Positions 10,148 to 31,769 are shown, counted from the first letter of the stretch. The stretch is 32,000 nucleotides of DNA from Xanthomonas campestris pv. campestris str. ATCC 33913 (GCF_000007145.1 NC_003902.1:4106497-4138496), one strand, 5' to 3'. Numbers and translations: made by a program. The notes: a model not told the origin generated them from the sequence alone.

Positions 10148-11548
10148 TCACAACGCAGGAAAGTGCGGTGCGCTCGAGCAGGTCGGGATGCTGCCGGCAA
10201 GCTGCACGGTGCTGGTGGTGACATTGGTGCCGGTCGGCACGAGCTCGCTGCTGCTCAGCCCGATCCGCGCATTGCTGGCGGTGACGGCCTTGTTGCCTGT
10301 CGCAACATTGGCAAGCACCAGGTCCAGCGGTGTCTGCTCGTTATAGCCTTCCAGGATCCAGCCCTTGCCCTTGAGACCCGCATCGCCGGTGGTCCGCAAG
10401 CCATTGACGACAATCTGGCTGAAGGTGGGCGCGGTGCCGCTGCCGCCGCTGGAATAGAACGGGTTGATCACCAGCGGGCTGGTGACGCCGTACAGGCAGG
10501 TATTGCGATAGGTAATCAGACTGACCGGGCCGCCCTTGGCGATGCTGGTCTTGATGCGCAGACCGTTGTTGTCGGTGCTGCGGTTGCCGGCATCGTCGCT
10601 GGCGGTGATGGCAGTGGAATCGACCAACACATTGCTGACGCCGGACATCACCTCGCTGCCGATCGAGATGCCGTGCGTGCCGTAGCAACGATTGTTGCGC
10701 AAGGTGATGTTGCCGGACTTGGAGGCGATGGTCTTGATCGCCACGCAATCGTCGCCGCCCATCACATCGTTATCGAACACGGTTGCGTTGACCACGCTAT
10801 CCAGGTCCAGGCCATCGGTGTTGGGGCTGGTCGCTGGCGACTTCACCCGCGTGCCCCAGATGGTCAGGCCATCGACGATATGCGCGAAGAAATGGAAGTA
10901 CGCCGCATTGATCAGATTGACGTTGTAGAGCGTAAATGCGCTGGAATTCTGCACCTTGATCAGGTCCGGGCTGTTCTGCACCTGGTTGGCCTTCTTGGCG
11001 TTCTCGCCGAACTCCCACCACGTGGTGCTCTTGCCGAGCATGGTCAGGTCACCACGGCCATCGATGGTGCCCTGGCGCCCACCGATGCGCACACCCATCA
11101 CACCGGACCTGGTGCCCTTGACGCTGATCAACGGCAGGCATCCGCCACTCTTGGAACCGGCCGTGCCGCAGCCACTGCCGTAATCGGCGGGGTTACGCGA
11201 GCCGTACACGGTGACGCCCTGATCGACCACCAACGTCACGCCAGTAGGAATCGACAGCGGCCCGGTCAGGAACGCGTTGCCCGCGCCCGCCGTCAGCAGC
11301 ACGCTGCCATTCTTCCCCGCACACGCGGTCAGTGCGGCCTGGATGTTTTTGGTATCGGGCGGCGCACTTTCCAATGCCGCCGCGAACTGGCGCGCGCTAG
11401 CCGTGTGCTCGGCCTTTACCGCCTGGCAGGTCGCCGGAATACCAGGCTCGGAGACTGCACGACCATCGCCGGTTGCCTGGGTGATGGCGCTCGCCTGTGA
11501 GGCAAGCGAAAGACAAAGACCGCCGATGGCGGCAGCAAGCAGTTTCAT
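10148..11548 (-). CDS. pglA: Secreted GH28 endo-polygalacturonase
   Basis: Start at MKLLAAAIGGLCLSLASQASA (ATG = complement of 11546-11548; signal peptide). GH28 signature motifs are present: SPNTDGLDL (NTD), GGDDCVAIK (DD), GTHGISIGS (G/HG) and GLRIKT (RIK). A PIP-box promoter lies upstream. Confidence 0.9.
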   Translation of the reverse strand: MKLLAAAIGGLCLSLASQASAITQATGDGRAVSEPGIPATCQAVKAEHTASARQFAAALESAPPDTKNIQAALTACAGKNGSVLLTAGAGNAFLTGPLSIPTGVTLVVDQGVTVYGSRNPADYGSGCGTAGSKSGGCLPLISVKGTRSGVMGVRIGGRQGTIDGRGDLTMLGKSTTWWEFGENAKKANQVQNSPDLIKVQNSSAFTLYNVNLINAAYFHFFAHIVDGLTIWGTRVKSPATSPNTDGLDLDSVVNATVFDNDVMGGDDCVAIKTIASKSGNITLRNNRCYGTHGISIGSEVMSGVSNVLVDSTAITASDDAGNRSTDNNGLRIKTSIAKGGPVSLITYRNTCLYGVTSPLVINPFYSSGGSGTAPTFSQIVVNGLRTTGDAGLKGKGWILEGYNEQTPLDLVLANVATGNKAVTASNARIGLSSSELVPTGTNVTTSTVQLAGSIPTCSSAPHFPAL

Positions 11549-11629
11549 GACGTAGTCACCCGAAGAAGAAGAGACGCGTGCCGTTCGGGGGCGACGCAGC
11601 GCCCAGGGAACCAACACGGTGAATGGCGC

Positions 11630-11690: not shown

Positions 11691-12475
11691 GCAGCATGCC
11701 ACCGCGCTTCCTTGTTGCTACCAAGTGCGCAGATCCACGTGGTCAGCAAGTTAGTGCGTGGCGTTACTTGGCAAGGAAACGATCCACTGCGGCTAGTTGC
11801 GGCGCATGCCCGGCTGAGCGGAACTTCCGCAAGGCATGCCGCCGACATTACCCTGCCTCGCAGAGGGCCATCCAACACAGGCGGCGCGTCGCTTCAAAGT
11901 AAGGTCAACCACCGCCATCACTGGCAGGCGCTTCTGACATCGCCTGCTGCTGAGAGCGCGCAGCAAGCGTCATCACCGGGCCCGTAGGCTCCTTGTCGAT
12001 CTCCTCGCGCTCGCGCTGGAACTGCACCATCTCCTGCGCCCGTTGCTGATCCATTGCCTCCGTTTTTTGCAAGGTTTCAGTCATGCCGGGCGATGGCGTA
12101 TTGAGCGCGGTTTCCGAATGGAATCCCAGCGTTTTGCCAAAGACAAAGGCCACATCATCTTGGATGGTTACTTTCCGGAGTTCATCCGCGCGCTCAATCC
12201 CCGATTCTTTGACGGCTTGAAGCACTTCGGCCGTTTTCTCATCAGATGTGCCCCTGGGGAGCTGTGCCTGGATGGCGGAGAACAATGCGTAATCCCGATG
12301 ATCAGAGGGAAACGCCTGCTGAGCGACATCTTGGGATGGCCTGATTTGCTCGACCCGATCCTCATCGTTCACGCCTGCGTTTGAACGCCCGCCAGTCCCA
12401 CCAAAGCCAGGCGATGACGTATAGGAGGACGACGCGCGCTCAGGCAAGACGATCTGTGCCGGCACTTCGCTCTGA

Positions 12476-12511
12476 GTTGGCGTTGGCGTTGGCGTTGGCG
12501 TTGGCGTTGGC
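12476..12511. repeat. Hexanucleotide SSR (GTTGGC)x6 encoding a (PT)6 linker
   Basis: Six perfect tandem copies were counted on the plus strand. They translate on the minus strand as PPTPTPTPTPTPTQ inside the effector pseudogene. A shorter relative (tggcgttggcgttggcg, ~13765-13785) encodes APTPTPQ. Confidence 0.9.
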
Positions 12512-13434
12512 GGCAATGTTGCCTGCATCGCTTCTTGCTGCTCTGCCTGCAATGGAACAGCCGATGGCGCATCGTTCTGTGGCGTGCCTACTCGGGCTTG
12601 CTGCTCGCTGCCCTGCTCCACCGGCCCATTTGCCGATGCCGGCGCTATGGGTTTCAAAGCTTCTCGGCGCGCATGTTGTGCCTGGGACAACGCTTCATCC
12701 AGCTCTTGTCCGGCAACGCCCGTTGCCGGCAAACCTTGGTCTTGCTGGAACTGTCTCACGGCATGTTCGGTCTCCGAACCGTAGTGCCCGTCTTGCGGCA
12801 CGGCCTGCCCGTTTGGACCACGCGCATCTACTTGCTGCAAGCGATATTGCAAGAACTCGACTTCTTGCCCCCGGTCGCCCAGGCGCAGCCCTTCCACTTC
12901 ATGCGATGAGCGCGGTGTTGCGGCAGCTGCCTGAGTAGGCGCTTGATTGGGGACGGTCGAAGCGGATGATGCTGATCCAAGGTTCGGCGCAGATGCGCCC
13001 GCCAAGGCTGGGCCCACTGCCTCTGCCCTCGGCTGGACTGCGCCGGCTGTCGGGGGTGCCCCAACCTCAGGTGCTTGGGTCTCTTGGGGTTCTCGTTGCG
13101 GGACAGGTTCGGGCTTCGGTTCGGCAGGCTTGGCGACCGGGCGCACGTCTTCCTGCAGAGACGCGTTGACGGATGTAGCCACCGCGACAGGAGCAGGCGT
13201 TGCCGCCTCCGCAGCAGCAGGCGCATCGGGTGTACGTGCAACGTCTCGATCTCGCTGCGCATCAATGGCCGCCTGAGGTGCTCGGGTTTCATCCACATGC
13301 GGGGCGGTAACCGTTGTCGCCGCAAAGCTTGCGGCTTGCTGCGCTTCTTGCGTAGGCACACCTTGCCGATTAGCCTCCCGCAACGCTTGCTCGTAAGCAT
13401 CGCGCTCTTGGGGCGACTGTGCGTCAATGCGTTG

Positions 13435-13450
13435 CTCCGGCGCTCCGGCG
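13435..13450. repeat. 8-bp perfect tandem duplication (ctccggcg x2; CGCCGGAG x2 on the coding strand) causing the effector frameshift
   Basis: The plus strand at 13435-13450 reads ctccggcgctccggcg. Both reading frames encode …GAPE across it. Deleting one copy fuses …SLRQEQPPSAGAPE to QRIDAQSPQERDAYEQALREANRQG… in frame. Confidence 0.9.
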
Positions 13451-15736
13451 CACCGGCCGAAGGCGGTTGCTCCTGCCGAAGTGACTGCACCTCGCTGAGT
13501 GCCTGATGGATATCGTCGGTGCTGGTCATTGCTGCAACACGCACCGCACCATCGGCGTCACGGCTCAGATGCTGGATGGGGCTGTACACCGAGTATTGCG
13601 CGGTCGTATCACGCTGCAACGCCAAAGAGCTGGTCGCGGCATCGATCCCGTTTGCCTCACGTGTCCGTTGCACCGCAAGCTGGATCGCGCCTGCGGTCTG
13701 GGCATTGGGCGCAACGCCATAGGCGGCATAGGCCGCTTCGGTATTGGCCTGATCTTGTTGCTGTGGCGTTGGCGTTGGCGCTTGCCTTGCCGGCATCTGT
13801 GCCAACGCCTGCCCGTGCTGCTCCAATGCCGGTTGCAAGCGTTCGCGCGTTGCATTGAGTTCTGACGGGACATTGCCTTCGGCAGCAACACCATCATGCC
13901 GCCACTGATCTTGCGTATCGCGCTGATACTGCTTGCCGTCCGAGGCTTGCAGTGAGTCTGGGTTCAAGGCTGCCTGCACGGCTGATGGCACGGGGCCAAA
14001 ATCGTCCCATCCATTGCGCTGATAGGCAGTCTGATAAGTCGCTGCAATTGCAGCTGGGCCACGGGCAATGTTGGCGTCCACCACCTGGGCTGCTTGTTGA
14101 TCCAACCCGGCACTGCGCTCGGGGCTTGCCGGATCAACCGTCCAGACGGGCCGCTCGTTCCTATCGACTTCGTCGGCGATCATCCGGGACCACTGGCCAC
14201 TTGCCGGATCATGCCGCCAATCCCGTGCGTAAAGATGCGCAGCATCTGCCTCACTGGATGGCTGCACATAGGGGTTACTGGGTTGCACCTTGCCAAGCGC
14301 CTGCTCGGTCGCTTCGCTACTGGCGTGATAGTTCAGCTCGCGCGCTTTTTCGGGCAGTGCGAACATGGCCTGCTTCTGCGGTGCATCGACGCTATCGTTG
14401 GGAAGATCGGCCTTTTCTTGGCGCAACCACTGGTTGCCATTGAACTCCCAGCTCACGCCCTGCTTGTCAGTTTGTGTATAGATCTGGCGGTTGTCCCAGA
14501 GCGTCACGGCCTTGTCGGCAGCAGCACTGAACAGATAACCATCGGCCACCACCAGCGCGACGGGCCCGGCGCCGGTTGTGCCAACCACGGCAGCGGCGGC
14601 GGTGCCTCCCGCCCAGCCGCCTATGCCTCGGGCACTAAAGTGCAGCGCTTCTGACCGCGCAGCGGTAAGGTTGTCTTGCGCCAACAGCGTGCCAACACGC
14701 TCTCCGGTTTGCGACGCATCGTAGGCAGTGGCGGCAACGCCCAAACCCGCAAGCCCTGCTGTCATCCCGGCGCGACGCAAGCCTGGGATCTCCGGCTCAG
14801 GCACAGGCACGCGTGCAGGCGGAGCCCCTGGCCGCACGAGTTCATCAATGGTGGCAATGCCTTCCAGCCGGCTGTTCACGCCGTCACTGACGTGTAGCTC
14901 GGCGTGCTCAGCAAGCACTTGCTCCTGAACGGCGGGGGCGGCGTTGGGGATGTCTTGCACATGCGCCGGTAGATCGCGGTGCCAATCGACCTGTTGTTGC
15001 CAGCTTTCGCGCAGTACTTGGGTGACCGCTGGATCCTTGAACCACGCATTGCGCGCCGCTTCCAGTGCCTGCCCGGGCGGACGTGCATCGGTGCGGCTAT
15101 CGTAAACCTCGGCACCCTGGCGGTTGAAGATGCGTACGGGCGCCGTGGTCTGGGCATGCACCGTGTCCAGGCTGATCGGCAGCCTGGTGTAGACGACCTC
15201 GCGATGACTTTCGGGCACGTAGCGGCCGTAGCCTTCCCGATCGAGCTGCTGAGAAAACCTGGAATCGACGCCATGCTCGCTTTCCAGCTTGTGCGCGGCC
15301 ATTGCACGCACCTCGACGTCATAGCCGCGCGATTGCAGATCCTTGATCAGTTCCGCGCTCCACTGGCCATTGCTGAGCGTGGTGTCGAAGATCAGGTTCT
15401 TCTTGCCTTCGATAGTGACTTGCAGCAGTTCATCGGCCCATTGGCTGGCATCGGAGTGGGTGTAGCCAGACCAGGTGTAGGGGTGGGCATTGCGCAGGGC
15501 GGACACTTCGGGGTGAGCGTTACGCAATTCATCCGGATCGATCAGGACGACATCCCTGCCTAGCTCGACGTCTGCAGCTCTTGCGAGACTTCCTTTTCCC
15601 GAGCCAGGTTGCCCAGCGAGGATGATCGCCTTGGGGTGTTCGAAGGACGTTTTTGTCTCCAGTGCGGCATCATCAAGAATCTTCTGCTCAAATAATCTGC
15701 GATGCTCGACATTATCGAGACGGGATTCCTTTTCGT

Positions 15737-16381
15737 TCATATCAAAGACTCCTTGTGCGTCTCGATGTAATTCCACAGCTGATCTAGATCCGACATTCCG
15801 CGATTTCTCGATCTTGCATGGCGGGTCAAACGTTCTTTTTCTTCAGCCATTTTTACGGCGTTAGCATCACCGCTAGCGTGCGCAAGATCGAGTTCCTCGC
15901 GGGCTTCGGAGATGAAAGACTCAAGCCTTCCTTCCAACGCCCAGATGGCTCCATCGAACGGAATCAACGGATTTGGCTTCCTGATGTAATCATCGAGAAC
16001 ATCCTGCAAGCGCTGAATCAACTCGGGATAGTCTCTCAGTAGCTCACGCAATTTCTGCGGCACAGGAGGCGCAGGCAAGCCGTTTTCAATGGAGGGAGGC
16101 ATGGGCTTCGACATGGCAGGATCTTTCCTCTTAGGCATGGGCACGCGCGGCGCAGTGTGCGCATTGTCATCCAGTGCAGGGACCGGCTGCACCGGCTGCA
16201 CCCACGGTGCCGGCTTGGGTTTGCGCTTGACATGCTCCAGCAAGCCGCCATGCGGCAGCGGGCCTAGCTCGCGCTGCGTGCGTTCATTGATCAGTTGCAA
16301 ATCGCGCAGCAGCTGTGCGGCACGCGTCTCGGCTAAGCGCTGCGCCAATGCGATGTAATGGGAGCCTGATGTATCGCTCAT
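15737..16381 (-). CDS. Hypothetical 214-aa cytoplasmic protein, candidate cognate immunity/antitoxin for the zeta-like toxin
   Basis: Has an ATG (complement of 16379-16381) with a GAAGGAAG SD. Its stop TGA overlaps the toxin ATG (ATGA at 15737-15740). No signal peptide or lipobox. A Pro-rich middle is followed by a helical-looking C-terminal half (PVPQKLRELLRDYPELIQRLQDVLDDY…ISEAREELD) shared with the 140-aa ORF upstream. No family recognised. Confidence 0.6.
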   Translation of the reverse strand: MSDTSGSHYIALAQRLAETRAAQLLRDLQLINERTQRELGPLPHGGLLEHVKRKPKPAPWVQPVQPVPALDDNAHTAPRVPMPKRKDPAMSKPMPPSIENGLPAPPVPQKLRELLRDYPELIQRLQDVLDDYIRKPNPLIPFDGAIWALEGRLESFISEAREELDLAHASGDANAVKMAEEKERLTRHARSRNRGMSDLDQLWNYIETHKESLI

Positions 16382-16503: not shown

Positions 16504-16926
16504 TCATTTTCCTCGTGAGACGAGGTATTTAACGACAGGAGAAAGATCGGAAAAATAGCCGCGGTATACTGGAAATGCTGAAAAATCCCTGAACTTTTTT
16601 TCAGCTAATTCGCAAGAAAAATCGATTTTTATCTGGTCAACTGCTGATTTAGAAAGCCTAACGTCTTTAGCTACAGCATCAAGTTCTTGCGATGCTTCAA
16701 TGTGAAATTTATTTAATTCAGCACAAACCATATCCATCAACCTTCTGTAAGCCGGGCCGTATTTCTCCCTCGAGAATTCGCCACCTGGCAATTTTTCCGC
16801 GAATTGATCAAAAGCATCTTGCAACCTCGATAAATATGTAGGATAACTTCTTAATATTTTGTATAACTCCAGTGGGATTGGGTAGCGTAAATCACGATCC
16901 AGAGGTTCGTTTTCATCGACTAGCAT
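16504..16926 (-). CDS. Hypothetical 140-aa protein, paralog of the C-terminal half of the 214-aa ORF (second immunity-like gene)
   Basis: Has an ATG (complement of 16924-16926) preceded by GGAAGGAG. It lies in the most AT-rich stretch of the window. The shared motif is PIPLELYKILRSYPTYLSRLQDAFDQF … IEASQELD, against PVPQKLRELLRDYPELIQRLQDVLDDY … SEAREELD in the 214-aa ORF. No signal peptide. Confidence 0.6.
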   Translation of the reverse strand: MLVDENEPLDRDLRYPIPLELYKILRSYPTYLSRLQDAFDQFAEKLPGGEFSREKYGPAYRRLMDMVCAELNKFHIEASQELDAVAKDVRLSKSAVDQIKIDFSCELAEKKFRDFSAFPVYRGYFSDLSPVVKYLVSRGK

Positions 16927-17013: not shown

Positions 17014-18024
17014 TTACCATGCCGCCGTAGACATTAAGGCCTTAACTTCTGCTTTAGGTAACAGCCGCTTCGTGAAGTAAGCATCTTCGTAATACTTGAT
17101 CTTCTCGCAGAGCACCGGGCTTGGGATGCCTTCATAGAGGAAGACTTCCTTATCAAAACCCATCGCCTTCAACTCCTGCGGCAGCATCAAGGCGCGGCGC
17201 TGCTCGGTTTCTGAATAAGACACGCTGCTTTGCTTGCCACTGGTTTGCGACTTGTTCTTCTTGCGCACCGTGGTGTAGCCGAGCATGTCCGAGTAGTCGT
17301 TGGCGTCTTGCTGCTCGCGCGGGGCATAGACGATTTGCAAGGCGTGGTTGGTGATGATGGTGCGCGAGACATCCTTGCCATAGGTCGCGTCCAGCTGCGC
17401 CATGCTCTGGATGATCGGTAGCAAGCGAATGTTGTAGCCGGCCATGTAGCTCACCGCGCTTGCAATGATGTCGACCCGGCCGATGGACGTGAACTCGTCC
17501 ATCAGCAACAAACACTGGTGTTCGAGCACCGGGTTGTTCTGCGGCAGCTCTTTGGTGTTGAGGTTGATGAGCTGACTAAACAGCAAGTTGATCAACAGGC
17601 GGCTTTCGGCAAGCTTGTTCGGCTGGATGCCGATGTAGATGCTCATCTTCTTCTTGCGCACATCAGTCAGCAGGAAGTCGTTGTCGCTGGTTGACGCATC
17701 CAGGATCGGATTGATGAACTGGTTGAGCGGTTCCTTGAACGTGCCCATGATCGAGGCGAAGGTCTCTTCGGCTTGCGAGAGCAAATTGTCAAAGGCTGTC
17801 TTTGCGTCACGACCCAGGAAGTCGCGCTGCGAGAGCTTTTTGAGGTAGCCCTTCAAGTCGCTGCCATCTCCCGACGACACGCGATAGAGCATTCCAAGGG
17901 TTGGAAACATCCAGGTGTCTTTGGGGTGCTCGCGCTTGATCTGATCATCGAGGCTATCGAACAGATAGAGCGTAAACGCCATGAAGGCGTTGCGGGCCTG
18001 GCTCACCCAGAACTTTTGGGCGTC
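17014..18024 (-). pseudogene. virD4: virD4/traG-type T4SS coupling protein, C-terminal fragment (IS-disrupted)
   Basis: Part of track ORF 17014..18225. From codon GAC at 18024 it reads DAQKFWVSQARNAFMAFTLYLF … LLLMDEFTSIGRVD (Walker B-like) … NIRLLPIIQSMAQL … MLPQELKAMG, typical of the TraG/VirD4 C-terminal two thirds. Residues encoded by 18025-18225 are read-through from the IS. Confidence 0.85.
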
Positions 18025-18056
18025 CGACGTCCCCCCGCCCTGAGTAGCGGCCTGGT

Positions 18057-18908
18057 TTAGAGTCCGGGGTTGATGATATCGGTGTTTGCCAGATGTTGGG
18101 CATAAGCAGCCGGGGTCATGCCGCCGATTGCTTTCTTGGGTCGGTCCTCGTTGTATTCGCGTCGCCAGCGTTCGATTTCGGTGCGCGCGTGCAGTAACGT
18201 CGGGAACCAGTGCTCGTTGAGGCATTCGTCGCGCAGTCGGCCGTTGAAGGATTCGACGTAGGCGTTCTGGTTCGGTTTGCCTGGCTGGATGAGCCGTAGT
18301 TGCACATTACGGGCATGCGCCCAGGCGACCATCGCCTTACCGCAAAACTCCTTGCCGTTGTCAGTGCGGATCACCTTCGGCAAACCGCGACTGTGCGCCA
18401 GTCGGTCCAGCACGCGCGTCACCCCGTGCCCGGAGATCGCGCGCTCCACTTCGATGGCGACCACTTCGTGGGTTGCATCGTCCACGATCACCAGACACTT
18501 GATCACCCGGCCTTCGGCGGTGCGGTCGAACACAAAGTCCATCGACCACACCTGGTTGGCCTGCGATGGCCGCAGCAGCGGTTGACGCTCGCCTATTGGG
18601 ACCTTCTTGCGCTTGCGGCGGCGCACTTGCAGCTGCTGCTCGCGGTACAACCGTTCCACACGCTTGTAGTTCACGATGCGCCCTTCTTGCCGCAATTTGA
18701 GATAGATCATTCCCACGCCATAGCGGCGATGGCGATGTGCCAACGCACAGATGCGTTCGCGCAGTTCGCCATTGCGATCTTCGCGCGGGCAATACCGCAG
18801 TGCACTGGCGCTCATGCCGATCACTGCCAACGCACGACGCTCGCTGGCACCACGCCCGATCCATTCGCGCACCAGCGTCCGACGCGCCGGTGCGCTTACC
18901 ACTTTTTT
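18057..18908 (-). CDS. IS3-family transposase OrfB (DDE integrase core), expressed as OrfAB by -1 frameshift
   Basis: The slippery heptamer A AAA AAG is the complement of 18902-18908, and the OrfB frame is -1 relative to OrfA there. The product reads KKVVSAPARRTL… WSMDFVFD … IRTDNGKEF … YVESFNGRLRDECLN (D, D, E region). The first ~58 codons of track ORF 18057..19082 merely overlap orfA. Confidence 0.88.
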   Translation of the reverse strand, partial: KKVVSAPARRTLVREWIGRGASERRALAVIGMSASALRYCPREDRNGELRERICALAHRHRRYGVGMIYLKLRQEGRIVNYKRVERLYREQQLQVRRRKRKKVPIGERQPLLRPSQANQVWSMDFVFDRTAEGRVIKCLVIVDDATHEVVAIEVERAISGHGVTRVLDRLAHSRGLPKVIRTDNGKEFCGKAMVAWAHARNVQLRLIQPGKPNQNAYVESFNGRLRDECLNEHWFPTLLHARTEIERWRREYNEDRPKKAIGGMTPAAYAQHLANTDIINPGL

Positions 18909-19165
18909 CGCAGTGCATCCTTGATCAGGTCGTTCTCGAACAGCTGCTCGGCCAGCAACTTCTTCAGCCGCGCGTTCTCGGACTCTAGGTCCTTGAGCCG
19001 CTTGGCATCGGGCACGCTCATCCCACCGAACTTGCTGCGCCACAGGTAGTACGAGGCCTCGCTGAAGCCATGCCGCCGGCACAGGTCCTTGATGGCGACG
19101 CCGCTTTCGGCTTCGCGCAGAAAGCCGATGACCTGCTCGTCAGTAAAACGTTTCTTCACGTCCAA
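18896..19165 (-). CDS. IS3-family transposase OrfA (HTH)
   Basis: 89 aa: MDVKKRFTDEQVIGFLREAESGVAIKDLCRRHGFSEASYYLWRSKFGGMSVPDAKRLKDLESENARLKKLLAEQ, the classic IS3/IS407-group OrfA with a leucine zipper. It ends …CGA AAA AAG TGG TAA. Confidence 0.9.
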   Translation of the reverse strand: MDVKKRFTDEQVIGFLREAESGVAIKDLCRRHGFSEASYYLWRSKFGGMSVPDAKRLKDLESENARLKKLLAEQLFENDLIKDALRKKW

Positions 19166-19227
19166 TCTCCTCGGGGTAGGGAATTGGACTCCAAACTGAG
19201 GCGCTACTCAAAATTGGGGGGACGTCG

Positions 19228-19921
19228 CGTCAGAGCCATCCGGGTAGAGCATCGCCGCAACACTCATCAGATCCGACACGCGAAACGCCGGGTCCGGTGA
19301 GATATAGCTGAGCGGGTTCCAACGGTGGGTGCGCCCGTCTTCCGCGAACGGGTTAAACAAAAAGACTTCCTGGCCTTGGCTCTTGCGCCAACCCGAGGTC
19401 AGGTCGAAATTCTCCTGCTTGATGTCCAGAACGACCACCGATCCTTGGTAGTCGAGCAAATTGGGAATGACGATGCCCACGCCCTTGCCCGAACGCGTGG
19501 GCGCGGCCAGGATCACAAACTGCTGACCAGGCAAGCGCACCACCTTGCCGCCGTGCTTGCCAACCACAATGCCGGTTGGCGACGGTTTGAGCATGTCCTT
19601 CTTGGCCAGATCACTGCCGGAGGCAAAGCGCGCGTCGCCATGCAATGCGGCCGCCTTTGGCTTGAACAGCGGGATCAGCAGCGCGATCCAGGCCAGCAGC
19701 GGCACGCCGAAGCCTATGGCACCAGCCAGCTTGATCTTGCTGGCATAGGGAGCGAACTGCGGGAGGTCGAGCGCTTTGACGTAAGACCAGTAAGTGTCGA
19801 CGCTGAGCGGCGCAGCCACCTTCAACAGCATCAAGATCAACTGACCGGAGAAGAAAATTCCCGCGATTGCTGCGAGCAGCAACAGGCCGAATGCAGCGAC
19901 TATCCTGAGATTACTGCTCAC
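19228..19921 (-). pseudogene. virD4: virD4/traG-type T4SS coupling protein, N-terminal fragment (IS-disrupted)
   Basis: GTG start at 19921 with AAAGGAA upstream. It has two N-terminal TM segments (IVAAFGLLLLAAIAGIFF; AIGFGVPLLAWIALLIPLF), the Walker A ILAAPTRSGKGVGIVIPNLL, and then VVVLDIKQENF. The sequence ends …MLYPDGSDA at the IS junction. The track ORF runs 7 more codons into the IS, to 19208. Deleting the IS plus one TSD copy restores a 566-aa ORF. Confidence 0.88.
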
Positions 19922-30920: not shown

Positions 30921-31769
30921 GAACCTGTTCACGATCTTTCCTGATCAGTGCAGACTATGCGGATGCGCCAAAAGACCTATCCGAGTGACATGAGCCGGGA
31001 GCAGTTCGAACACGTGCTGCCGATTCTGGAACAAGCGCGTAAGCGCACCAAGCCACGCCGTGTGGATATGTATGAGGTGTGGTGCGCAGTGTTGTACGTG
31101 CTGCGAACCGGTTGCCAATGGCGAGCGCTACCCAGCGACTTTCCGAAGTGGCGAACCGTGCACTCGTACTTTGCCAAGTGGAGCGAGTGCGACGATGAGG
31201 GAGTGAGCCTGCTGGAGCAGGCACTTAAAAAATCAGGTTGGCGTGGCCCGCGCCAGACAGGAGCGCAACGCTTGCACCAGGTTCTTGATCGTGGACGCGC
31301 AGAGCGTAAAGAACACGGACACAGCAGGGCAAAAGGGATATGACACGGGCAAGAAGGTGTCGGGCATCAAGCGGCATATCGCTGTTGATACTCAGGGATT
31401 GCCCCATGCAATCGCGGTGACGACGGCGGAGGTGACCGACCGCAAAGGTGCGCTGCAAGCGTTGGAGCGCTGCCAGTCAAAGTTGACGCATGTACAAACC
31501 TTACTGTGCGACAGCGGTTACACCGGAGTACGGTTTGCCGACGGCGTGCGAGAGATTTTAGGCGAACAGCTCACGGTGCAGATTGCCAAGCGCAGCGAAC
31601 TGCACACCTTCAAGGTCATGCCCAAGCGATGGATCGTCGAGCGTAGTTTTGCTTGGCTGGAGAAGAACCGAAGGCTATGGAAGAACTGCGAGCGCAAACT
31701 CAACACCAGCCTGCAGTTCATCCATTTGGCCTTCTTGGCACTATTACTCAGAAGATCGTGAACAGGTTC
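30921..31769 (+). mobile_element. IS5-family (IS427/IS1031-like small subgroup) insertion sequence, 849 bp
   Basis: It has perfect 18-bp terminal inverted repeats: gaacctgttcacgatctt (30921-30938) and aagatcgtgaacaggttc (31752-31769). Direct TTA flanks it at 30918-30920 and 31770-31772, a putative 3-bp TNA-type TSD. It encodes a DDE_Tnp_1-type transposase in two frames. Confidence 0.85.
30948..31761 (+). CDS. IS5-family transposase, split into two overlapping frames (orfA 30948..31343, orfB frame to 31761)
   Basis: OrfA reads MRQKTYPSDMSREQFEHVLPILEQARKRTKPRRVDMYEVWCAVLYVLRTGCQWRALPSDFPKWRTVHSYFAKW (the DUF4096-like N-terminus of IS5 transposases). The orfB frame reads …FLIVDAQSVKNTDTAGQKGYDTGKKVSGIKRHIAVDTQGLP…LLCDSGYTG…RWIVERSFAWLEKNRRLWKNCERK (DDE). 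The frames meet at the A6 run 31227-31232, and orfB is +1 relative to orfA. Confidence 0.8.

Follow-up and report, generated by a model that had tools for sequence, protein, structure and literature searches.

Effectors of the bacteria-killing type IV secretion systems of Xanthomonadales (X-T4SSs) carry a domain, the XVIPCD, that binds VirD4, the coupling protein, at its all-alpha domain and is needed for secretion (PMC8740702). In the canonical effectors (X-Tfes) XAC2609 from Xanthomonas citri and TfcB from Stenotrophomonas maltophilia, the heads are periplasm-acting GH19 enzymes; TfdA (protein 20845) from S. maltophilia, a verified X-T4SS substrate with an XVIPCD, is a GHH DNase that acts in the cytoplasm (PMC11253643), and Zeta Toxin (PF06414) is found among the domains of bioinformatically identified X-Tfes (Figure 5 legend in Sgro et al. 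2019, PMC6536674). The zeta toxin of pSM19035 and PezT of Streptococcus pneumoniae are kinases of uridine diphosphate N-acetylglucosamine (UDP-GlcNAc) with a gene upstream as antidote, and polymorphic toxins of the contact-dependent inhibition (CDI) and Rhs kinds join a shared constant backbone to swapped toxin domains with matched immunity. Here we analyse a stretch of 32,000 nucleotides from X. campestris pv. campestris ATCC 33913 (NC_003902.1:4106497-4138496, referred to as the window), in which a gene for a zeta-headed toxin lies close to a paralogue of virD4. The reading that we favour, with a probability of roughly 0.6, is that this locus represents, in decayed form, a cassette of three parts that was acquired horizontally: a virD4 paralogue, one or more immunity genes and a polymorphic toxin.

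Like zeta and PezT, the kinase encoded in the window has a full-length PF06414 match, the Walker A lysine, the catalytic aspartate and two arginines, and an upstream gene in the place of an antidote; unlike them, it forms the ~220-aa head of a 1,275-aa protein of secreted type, its GTXR motif is replaced by T-T-L-S and residue E116 by aspartate, and the upstream protein is unrelated to epsilon or PezA. It differs from XAC2609 and TfcB in having a kinase in place of the GH19 enzyme, and also in its C-terminus: the canonical XVIPCDs pass the Pfam model PF20410, whereas the domain of the window toxin does not, lacks two insertions of ~10-12 residues and has an acidic, Gly-rich extension. TfdA, compared by description only, has a GHH nuclease rather than a kinase as head, with no peptidoglycan (PG)-binding domain described. 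With CDI and Rhs systems the cassette shares the constant backbone, the swapped toxin domains with matched immunity, the orphan immunity genes and the AHH-Imm11 pairing, but it is their mirror image: the variable part of the toxin is N-terminal and the immunity gene lies upstream, because the secretion signal is C-terminal, and the cassette carries a coupling ATPase of its own. A preliminary description of this DNA, made from the sequence alone, had proposed a new toxin class for the bacteria-killing T4SS, set apart from effectors that mainly act in the periplasm. The novelty does not hold, given the 2019 list, the TfdA paper and the family name 'zeta toxin family protein' borne by hundreds of RefSeq orthologues, and the contrast is dated, with TfdA verified as cytoplasm-acting and XAC3266 a predicted nuclease. 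The zeta-headed X-Tfe architecture is thus already catalogued; what is apparently new is its pairing with a private VirD4. Apparently undescribed as well, as far as we checked, are the toxin-linked VirD4 clade, the polymorphic organisation in mirror image and the family of immunity modules.

A VirD4 clade linked to toxins with exchanged heads

The cassette lies in an island between rodA and mltB with a GC content of 0.49-0.57 across 15-18 kb, as against ~0.65 in the flanks; the core genes of this segment are mreB, mreC, mreD, mrdA, rodA … mltB, rlpA, dacC … lipB, and the island itself reads, on the minus strand, virD4, a 140-aa open reading frame (ORF), a 214-aa ORF, the toxin and a GH28 gene. 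The features of the cassette are:

19228-19921, minus strand: 5' part of the virD4 paralogue (Pfam T4SS-DNA_transf, profile positions 19-140)
18025-19227, minus strand: insertion sequence (IS) element of the IS3 family, 1,203 bp, splitting virD4 (orfA at 18896-19165; orfB with rve domains; 4-bp direct repeat CGTC)
17014-18024, minus strand: 3' part of the virD4 paralogue (Pfam T4SS-DNA_transf, positions 137-461, TraG-D_C and TrwB_AAD_bind)
16504-16926, minus strand: 140-aa ORF, a distant relative of the immunity module (a 30-aa motif is 43% identical to the 214-aa protein)
15737-16381, minus strand: 214-aa candidate cognate immunity protein, without signal peptide; its stop overlaps the toxin ATG (ATGA, 15737-15740)
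11905-15740, minus strand: toxin pseudogene (ATG at 15740, stop at 11905-11907), 99% identical to the intact allele P0001
13436-13451, minus strand: frame-shifting 8-bp tandem duplication of GCGCCGGA (three-frame reading; comparison with other contigs)

The VirD4 survey, a scan of one genome per species, gave 80 loci, and 87 loci were fetched in all and classed by tblastn and Pfam. Every VirD4 in this set that is at least 94% identical to that of the window (94-98%) is followed by the small ORF or ORFs and then by a toxin, wherever the contig is long enough; these toxins are ~1,200-1,275 aa long and exhibit the same central region, PG-binding domain and C-terminus, and no virB gene is found downstream. 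VirD4s that are 72-74% identical to the window's have virB7 downstream of them, with the N0/TcpQ-like domain that typifies X-T4SSs, and then virB8, virB9, virB10, virB11, virB1 and virB4. Both kinds can be present in one genome: X. euvesicatoria ATCC 11633 has two cassettes (L018 and L021) together with a canonical operon copy (L073), and the same holds for X. prunicola, X. dyei and X. floridensis. A different context, with no virB genes at the locus, surrounds the trio of virD4, small ORF and toxin in X. arboricola and X. hortorum, and on a metagenome contig a VirD4 that is 90% identical to the cassette type is followed by Imm11 and then by an AHH toxin, the C-terminus of which is 60% identical to that of the window toxin.

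A neighbour-joining tree of 85 VirD4s places the toxin-linked proteins in one clade apart from every virB-linked VirD4; the clade includes a Luteimonas metagenome-assembled genome (MAG), Stenotrophomonas and a Lysobacteraceae MAG, and its sub-clades within Xanthomonas largely track the type of toxin head. The window VirD4 is 72-74% identical to the operon VirD4s of Xanthomonas and 72-79% identical to the VirD4s of protein-secreting X-T4SSs, and it is remote from TrwB (E 2e-4). That the neighbouring virD4 might be a relocated gene of the X-T4SS operon was ruled out by these identity values, the gene context and the tree. The divergence between paralogue and canonical VirD4 is concentrated in the transmembrane part and in residues 240-290 and 480-510, with residues 240-290 falling inside the all-alpha domain when mapped through the TrwB alignment, and the Walker A and Walker B motifs are intact in unbroken copies of the paralogue. 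According to one publication, X. euvesicatoria 85-10 and X. citri 306 have one copy of VirD4 each, and no description of a second, toxin-linked VirD4 was found in the literature, which was incompletely searchable. We put the chance that the adjacent paralogue is the dedicated coupling protein of the toxin at close to even. The preliminary description had placed the toxin next to its own coupling protein: a virD4 gene is indeed found 1.3 kb away, although it is split by the IS3 element and is not the virD4 of a virB operon.

The toxins themselves represent one backbone, 85-93% identical from residue ~330 on, that is combined with three heads: the zeta kinase, an AHH-like nuclease and a head of ~290 aa without Pfam match. 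The AHH assignment comes from a sub-threshold Pfam match (20.2 bits, cut-off 22.3), accompanied by a strong Imm11 match upstream (E 1e-66), and the third head is paired with its own 151-aa ORF upstream. The family thus exhibits the properties of polymorphic toxins, namely a constant backbone, swapped heads, matched upstream genes and orphan genes, the last of these both in the X. hortorum contig L008 and in the window. The sister proteins that combine an AHH-like head and Imm11 with the backbone of the window toxin, beside the same VirD4 clade, recall the AHH-nuclease X-Tfes XAC3266 of X. citri and Smlt4382 of S. maltophilia, but the AHH effectors of Stenotrophomonas carry canonical PF20410 domains, unlike the window toxin. 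XAC3266 is a published VirD4-binding X-Tfe and predicted nuclease, the XVIPCD of which is an outlier in BLAST searches; a link between the window family and XAC3266 or XCV1120, for which VirD4-binding data have been published, was not confirmed through supplements, cluster names or homologue search.

For the zeta head, the matched gene would be that of the 214-aa protein, which we consider likely to be the immunity protein of the toxin; its position, directly before the toxin gene and overlapping it, is the one expected for the immunity gene of an X-Tfe. This protein has no Pfam or PDB match and no similarity to epsilon or PezA, but its C-terminal ~110 aa form a module (PPVPxxLxExLxxYPExIxRLQ…AxWxLEGRLxxFxSEA) that recurs before the genes of zeta-headed toxins in other genera, with 45% identity (E 7e-25) in Stenotrophomonas and 46% (E 4e-22, as two tandem copies) in Lysobacter; it is conserved upstream of zeta heads in three genera, and across the loci compared it was seen next to zeta heads only. 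Signal peptides are absent, by inspection, from the 214-aa protein and the other immunity candidates compared, which fits a cytoplasmic site of action. In other Xanthomonas, zeta-head immunity modules are also found fused in one ORF, with three repeats at L025 11623-12990 (455 aa) and two at L005 9285-10004 (239 aa), and these resemble arrays in which several immunity specificities have become one protein.

The 140-aa ORF is probably an orphan immunity gene. Its product is 27% identical to the Stenotrophomonas and Lysobacter modules over ~70 aa, its GC content at third codon positions (GC3) is 0.34 compared with ~0.8-0.9 for the genome, and a 67% identical homologue stands at the corresponding place by rodA in X. 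hortorum (L008 11785-12207), adjacent to an AHH toxin. At this X. hortorum locus, the AHH toxin is preceded by the 140-aa homologue, by an orphan copy of the immunity gene of the third head and by Imm11; by analogy with polymorphic toxin loci, such orphan genes before a swapped head are the usual mark of displaced immunity genes.

Across X. campestris assemblies, in which the order rodA, virD4, 140-aa ORF, 214-aa ORF, toxin is found, all four combinations of intact and broken virD4 and toxin occur: L001 has both genes intact, L002 an intact toxin and a virD4 hit by an IS, L003 an intact virD4 and a frameshifted toxin, and in the window both genes are broken. In the window the three VirD4 domains are divided by the IS, whereas L001 and L003 encode the intact 566-aa form. 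As the window is 99.6% identical over 15 kb to L003, with its frameshift and intact virD4, the duplication in the toxin gene is older than the IS insertion. A copy of this IS, 99% identical, lies at a different virD4 site in L002 (6643-7847), and two hits by one IS3-family element, at separate sites and in separate X. campestris lineages, indicate that virD4 was inactivated repeatedly and independently.

Several other features were seen around these cassettes. The GH28 gene (window 10148-11617), which is polygalacturonase-like, lies between the toxin and mltB, as it does in L001 and L003; near the end of the window, a 172-aa ORF with a DDE_Tnp_1 transposase domain (31243-31761) is probably part of an IS5-type element, and a second mobile element within 32 kb fits an IS-rich genome. 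In X. arboricola (L005 14034-18460) and X. hortorum (L006 13988-17499) the cassette is followed by an AprE/HlyD-like adaptor and a C39-peptidase ABC exporter, with a Pesticin-domain protein in addition in X. arboricola; in these two species the island gathers several antibacterial systems. An apparent minimal cassette is found in Stenotrophomonas sp. C3 (L029 10001-13300), where a toxin-linked VirD4 is followed by similarity to the third head and, shortly after, to a C-terminus of the window toxin's type (type X), without the long central region and the PG-binding domain; the ORF calls are fragmentary there.

The broken toxin, its kinase head and its backbone

The preliminary description had reported a 1,275-aa protein at 11905-15740, and such a protein is obtained once one copy of GCGCCGGA is removed; a single ORF is restored only in this way, and as encoded the product has 970 aa. 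Two overlapping ORFs on the minus strand, 12828-15776 (982 aa) and 11905-13383 (492 aa), are parts of this one gene: of the 970 aa, 763 are authentic residues and ~207 are out of frame, and the PG-binding and secretion domains, both downstream of the frameshift, are missing from the product. The intact allele P0001 (1,271 aa) is 99% identical to the repaired window protein. The duplication is present in contigs L003 and L004 and absent from L001, L002 and L006, the intact alleles having a single in-frame site, and a near-identical 970-aa product, out-of-frame tail included, is represented by P0064 with 35 member sequences from public X. campestris pv. campestris. Since independent assemblies share both the 8-bp duplication and the out-of-frame tail, the frameshift is a real mutation inherited in this lineage, and a sequencing or read error as its cause was ruled out on the same grounds. 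We have little doubt that the window toxin is a pseudogenised zeta-headed member of the X-Tfe superfamily. A promoter and terminator scan of 11.5-20.4 kb gave fewer sites than were found in shuffled controls.

Within the toxin, the following segments were assigned, all numbered on the repaired protein:

15090-15668, minus strand: zeta/PezT-type kinase head, aa 25-217 (Pfam PF06414, E 4.7e-60)
15588-15614, minus strand: Walker A motif GQPGSGKGS with K49, equivalent to K46 of zeta (zeta alignment)
15531-15542, minus strand: catalytic aspartate D70 in IDPD, equivalent to D67 of zeta (zeta alignment)
15369-15389, minus strand: FDTTLSN at the position of zeta E116 and GTXR (D119, then T120-T121-L122-S123-N124; G and R not conserved)
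14505-14768, minus strand: Gly/Ala-rich hydrophobic segment, aa 325-412 (Kyte-Doolittle; low pLDDT in the AlphaFold2 (AF2) model)
13461-14483, minus strand: conserved central region, aa 420-760, common to all head variants (85-93% identity to sisters with other heads)
12700-12873, minus strand: PG_binding_1 domain, aa 954-1011, now out of frame (Pfam PF01471)
11908-12312, minus strand: C-terminal XVIPCD-superfamily domain, aa 1141-1275, now out of frame (profile alignment, AF2, Foldseek and wider family)

The N-terminal P-loop kinase of zeta/PezT type, which had been recognised in the preliminary description, is fully borne out: the PF06414 match of the repaired protein scores 202.9 bits (cut-off 22.3) and covers profile positions 3-198 of 199, a weaker AAA_33 match lies on the same P-loop, and the motifs quoted at the time are all present (AIILAGQPGSGKGS at aa 38-51, IDPDELR at aa 67-73 and IFDTTLS at aa 117-123). 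PezT is the best NCBIfam match of the toxin, with a score far under the equivalog cut-off. When compared to PDB sequences, the head alone recovers zeta (1GVN) with E 2.8e-20 and PezT with E 1.3e-11, and a profile of the family recovers them with E 4e-34 and E 1e-25, respectively. Alignment with zeta reveals that two arginines are kept (R161 and R173, corresponding to R158 and R171 of zeta), and that the glutamates E100 and E116 of zeta are replaced by aspartates (D103 and D119).

A further difference from zeta concerns the GTXR motif (zeta G117-T121), which is needed for UDP-GlcNAc binding (PMC6362051) and in the place of which the head has T-T-L-S. This replacement is shared by the whole group: the stretch FDTTLSNGQW is identical in the Xanthomonas, Lysobacter and Stenotrophomonas homologues and in the family consensus. 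Judged from its residues, the head is a kinase of the zeta lineage with the catalytic apparatus intact and a substrate pocket that is specific to the family. Whether its substrate is something other than UDP-GlcNAc we rate as an even bet, and the statement in the preliminary description that the substrate cannot be read from the sequence agrees well with the exchanged motif. The loss of GTXR in zeta-headed toxins is apparently undescribed before, as far as we checked.

Between the head and the PG-binding domain, two further parts of the backbone stand out. The toxin reaches its highest hydrophobicity (Kyte-Doolittle 1.75) at aa 381-399, within the Gly/Ala-rich segment, and the same segment in the AHH-headed sister toxins has weak, sub-threshold Pfam matches to Gly-zipper, DUF6861 and C19orf12; the segment possibly forms a glycine zipper or inserts into a membrane. 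AF2 predicts the central region, with pLDDT values of 85-96, as four repeated units, each a small beta-sheet and then a long helix. A fold search of this model gave no PDB relative, the best matches being Whirly/MRP-like beta-sheet-plus-helix proteins with a probability of at most 0.30, and the predicted region may represent an undescribed fold. According to the authors of the TfdA study (PMC11253643), the 'large central region of indeterminate function' in that effector is similar to Xanthomonadales proteins of the zeta toxin family, and from this likeness we infer, by analogy, that the conserved backbone could serve toxins that must reach the cytoplasm of the prey. The PG_binding_1 domain that had been described as a repeat is present (PF01471, E 5.7e-14, 52.5 bits with a cut-off of 23), albeit as one domain only.

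A C-terminal domain of the XVIPCD superfamily

The C-terminus had been recognised as XVIPCD-like from its motif order, and this assignment is supported by alignment and predicted fold, even though the dedicated Pfam model misses it. The toxin C-terminus is colinear with canonical XVIPCDs (hhalign probability 96.2%, E 2e-9) and with the Lysobacter type (99.1%), and the aligned motifs follow the order H-x-D-x-A-L-F/Y; S-D/E-E…AK…G-I/L…D; V…V…G; T/A-P…E-S/T and a Gln-rich stretch; the multiple alignment also places the two insertions of canonical XVIPCDs that are missing from this type. AF2 modelling of the 165-aa C-terminal segment gave helices at 38-47 and 54-67, strands at 75-81, 84-89 and 95-99, and a helix at 107-137: the core, with pLDDT values of 85-94, shows the order alpha-alpha-beta-beta-beta plus a long helix and so, by prediction, fits the definition of the XVIPCD fold (PMC8740702). 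The top Foldseek match among 350,542 PDB chains was 7r6s, the T4SS effector of S. maltophilia known as TfcB, which has the XVIPCD as its C-terminal domain; the probability was 0.98, but in absolute terms the match is a weak one, with E 0.02 and a query-normalised TM-score of 0.38, and all remaining matches had probabilities of at most 0.33.

A profile of the type-X C-terminus, searched against 1.84 billion representative proteins, gave 298 clusters at E<=1e-3, in proteins of ~60 to 1,400 aa, and the match lies almost always at the extreme C-terminus. Pfam scanning of 98 of these clusters revealed PG_binding_1 (30), Lipase_3 (10), PG_binding_3 (7), GH19 (6), Zeta_toxin (4), Tle1-like phospholipase (4) and M23 (3), with lysozymes, NlpC/P60, Mbeg1-like, glucosaminidase and SLT domains as further heads, and 11 of the 98 also match PF20410. 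This N-terminal repertoire is that of the X-Tfe list in the 2019 review (Sgro et al., PMC6536674). The width of the family became visible through this exhaustive profile search; a word-indexed homologue search with the C-terminal 153 aa had returned seven fragments of the same family only, and the C-terminal 213 aa, compared to PDB chain sequences, gave chance matches only.

Some results speak against this placement. The C-terminal ~135 aa of the toxin have no match to PF20410 (X-Tfes_XVIPCD) or any other Pfam model, even at E<=10, and the closest relative, P0098 (~60% identical), reaches 17.2 bits with PF20410 where the cut-off is 24.9; the canonical Stenotrophomonas homologue P0114 scored 116.6 bits in the same run. 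A small hidden Markov model built from 16 PF20410-positive C-termini gave the toxin C-terminus 15 bits, which is suggestive and not decisive. The tail of the toxin (…SEAPASDGGG) is furthermore acidic and Gly-rich, without arginine, and XVIPCD tails mostly end in arginine plus small or hydrophobic residues; the canonical homologue P0113 has a similar Gly-rich extension. Despite the PF20410 miss, the colinear motifs, the predicted fold, the TfcB match and the family of 298 clusters place the domain in the XVIPCD superfamily, and on the strength of these alignments and models it is best described as an XVIPCD variant that is under-detected by the Pfam model.

Two observations concern the neighbourhood of this domain in other alleles and homologues. 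The (Thr-Pro)6 linker repeat before the C-terminal domain (window 12475-12510) is two units longer than in P0001, a small length polymorphism. In the zeta-headed homologues P0095, P0100 and P0107, from metagenomes and genomes, there are apparently two secretion-type domains in tandem: their precomputed PF20410 match does not lie in the last 170 aa, so that a canonical XVIPCD is seemingly internal and followed by a C-terminal domain of the Lysobacter type.

Competing explanations and meaning of the cassette

In the mechanism that we propose, an intact toxin of ~1,270 aa, the form found in other strains, would be made in the cytoplasm and kept inactive by the protein of the overlapping upstream gene, the ~110-aa module of which accompanies every zeta-headed homologue examined. 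The XVIPCD-type C-terminus would then be recognised by a VirD4 ATPase, most likely the paralogue of the cassette itself, and the toxin would enter a neighbouring bacterium through the VirB channel of an X-T4SS whose genes lie at another place in the genome. In this recipient, the PG-binding domain, the Gly/Ala-rich segment and the central region may help to bring the N-terminal head to the prey cytoplasm, where the zeta/PezT-type kinase would phosphorylate an essential nucleotide-like metabolite with ATP; given that GTXR is missing, this substrate is probably not recognised in the way that zeta toxins recognise UDP-GlcNAc. Of this picture, the analysis established the identity of the domains, the two lesions, the tie to a separate VirD4 clade, the exchange of heads together with their immunity genes and the superfamily of the C-terminus; the VirD4 that is used, delivery by the X-T4SS, the way of entry and the substrate are inferences. 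In the window itself the system is dead, with the 8-bp duplication removing the PG-binding and secretion domains and the IS3 element splitting virD4. The most specific form of this proposal, in which the separate VirD4 clade is a private adaptor that reads a co-evolved XVIPCD variant and plugs the toxin into any resident X-T4SS channel, and in which the zeta-type head is a cytoplasm-acting kinase with a substrate other than UDP-GlcNAc, we regard as tentative and as somewhat short of an even chance.

Several observations weigh against the cassette reading as a whole. There is no virB gene in the 32-kb window, and the X-T4SS locus of X. campestris pv. campestris, known from the literature, is described there as broken up or missing in many strains; it is in its transmembrane region that the paralogue has diverged most, so that docking on the same VirB machine is not obviously favoured; the loss of GTXR is no proof of a different substrate; and no experiment on any zeta-headed X-Tfe was found in the literature. 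The zeta-headed homologues of Stenotrophomonas (with a canonical XVIPCD) and Lysobacter (with the C-terminus of Lysobacter type) have no virD4 beside them, which indicates that the head itself can do without a private VirD4, and the cassette VirD4s within one genome are ~95% alike, such that their linkage to the toxin may be due to joint movement rather than to a functional need. These last two observations also count in favour of an alternative in which the toxin, like any ordinary X-T4SS effector, depends on the VirD4 of the virB operon, with the adjacent paralogue a redundant passenger of the island, and so does the membership of the toxin C-terminus in the same superfamily as canonical XVIPCDs. 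In two-hybrid experiments XAC3266 binds the operon VirD4 of X. citri and its all-alpha domain (PMC8740702), a result that would be relevant here only if XAC3266 had a type-X C-terminus. This alternative is nevertheless unlikely in our view, as the linkage holds strictly in every checkable locus, whichever of the four genera or three head types it represents, the VirD4s concerned form a clade of their own, the unbroken paralogues have kept Walker A and Walker B, and their divergence is concentrated in the all-alpha domain that presumably binds the substrate.

The MobA/MobL relaxase and integrase genes found near some of the cassettes, in X. arboricola and X. hortorum, are a further point against the favoured reading and suggest another possibility, that the VirD4 paralogue is a coupling protein for DNA mobilisation acting with a relaxase, and that the kinase and the upstream gene form an addiction module in cis, comparable to zeta/epsilon, rather than a secreted weapon. 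The antidote gene lies directly upstream and overlaps the toxin, zeta/epsilon and PezAT are classical toxin-antitoxin modules, the region has a low GC content, and in a published model X-T4SS effectors go back to plasmid toxins that were joined to domains binding coupling proteins (PMC7777525). Such a module would leave a 1,275-aa protein with a PG-binding domain and an XVIPCD-type C-terminus without a role for either, and it would not be expected to share its backbone with an AHH nuclease and Imm11, the mark of interbacterial polymorphic toxins; in addition, the rodA site lacks a relaxase in both X. campestris and X. hortorum, the VirD4 is close to those of protein-secreting X-T4SSs and remote from TrwB, and the 214-aa protein does not resemble epsilon or PezA. 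We therefore consider this explanation improbable. Even less credence, close to none, is given to a plant-directed effector that would phosphorylate NAD in host cells. The model for this would be AvrRxo1, a type III effector of Xanthomonas oryzae and NAD kinase, which is itself a Xanthomonas zeta-like kinase with an antitoxin-like partner. The family profile that recovers zeta and PezT did not recover AvrRxo1 among the PDB chains even at E<=1, so that there is no detectable relationship at the profile level, and secretion route and architecture differ: the kinase of the window toxin begins at residue ~25, which leaves no space for an N-terminal type III signal, its secretion-type domain is C-terminal and T4SS-like, and the family is also found in the non-pathogens Lysobacter and Stenotrophomonas.

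Returning to the cassette reading, both of its key genes are inactivated in the window, which should be annotated as a pseudogene locus, and the natural strains of X. campestris form a ready genetic series that runs from intact virD4 and toxin genes, through an IS-broken virD4 or a frameshifted toxin, to inactivation of the two together. If the intact alleles work as proposed, then the bacteria-killing T4SS would deliver a nucleotide-kinase poison to the cytoplasm of prey cells, beyond the envelope-degrading enzymes and nucleases, and as the substrate-binding motif of the head differs from those of the UDP-GlcNAc kinases studied so far, the target metabolite becomes a testable question. The strict pairing of effector and VirD4 clade suggests that substrate selection by a T4SS can be extended by a second coupling protein, which bears both on the evolution of effector repertoires and on the engineering of delivery. 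Should the private adaptor prove to be true, effector repertoires would grow by matched pairs of signal and receptor, and not by effectors alone.

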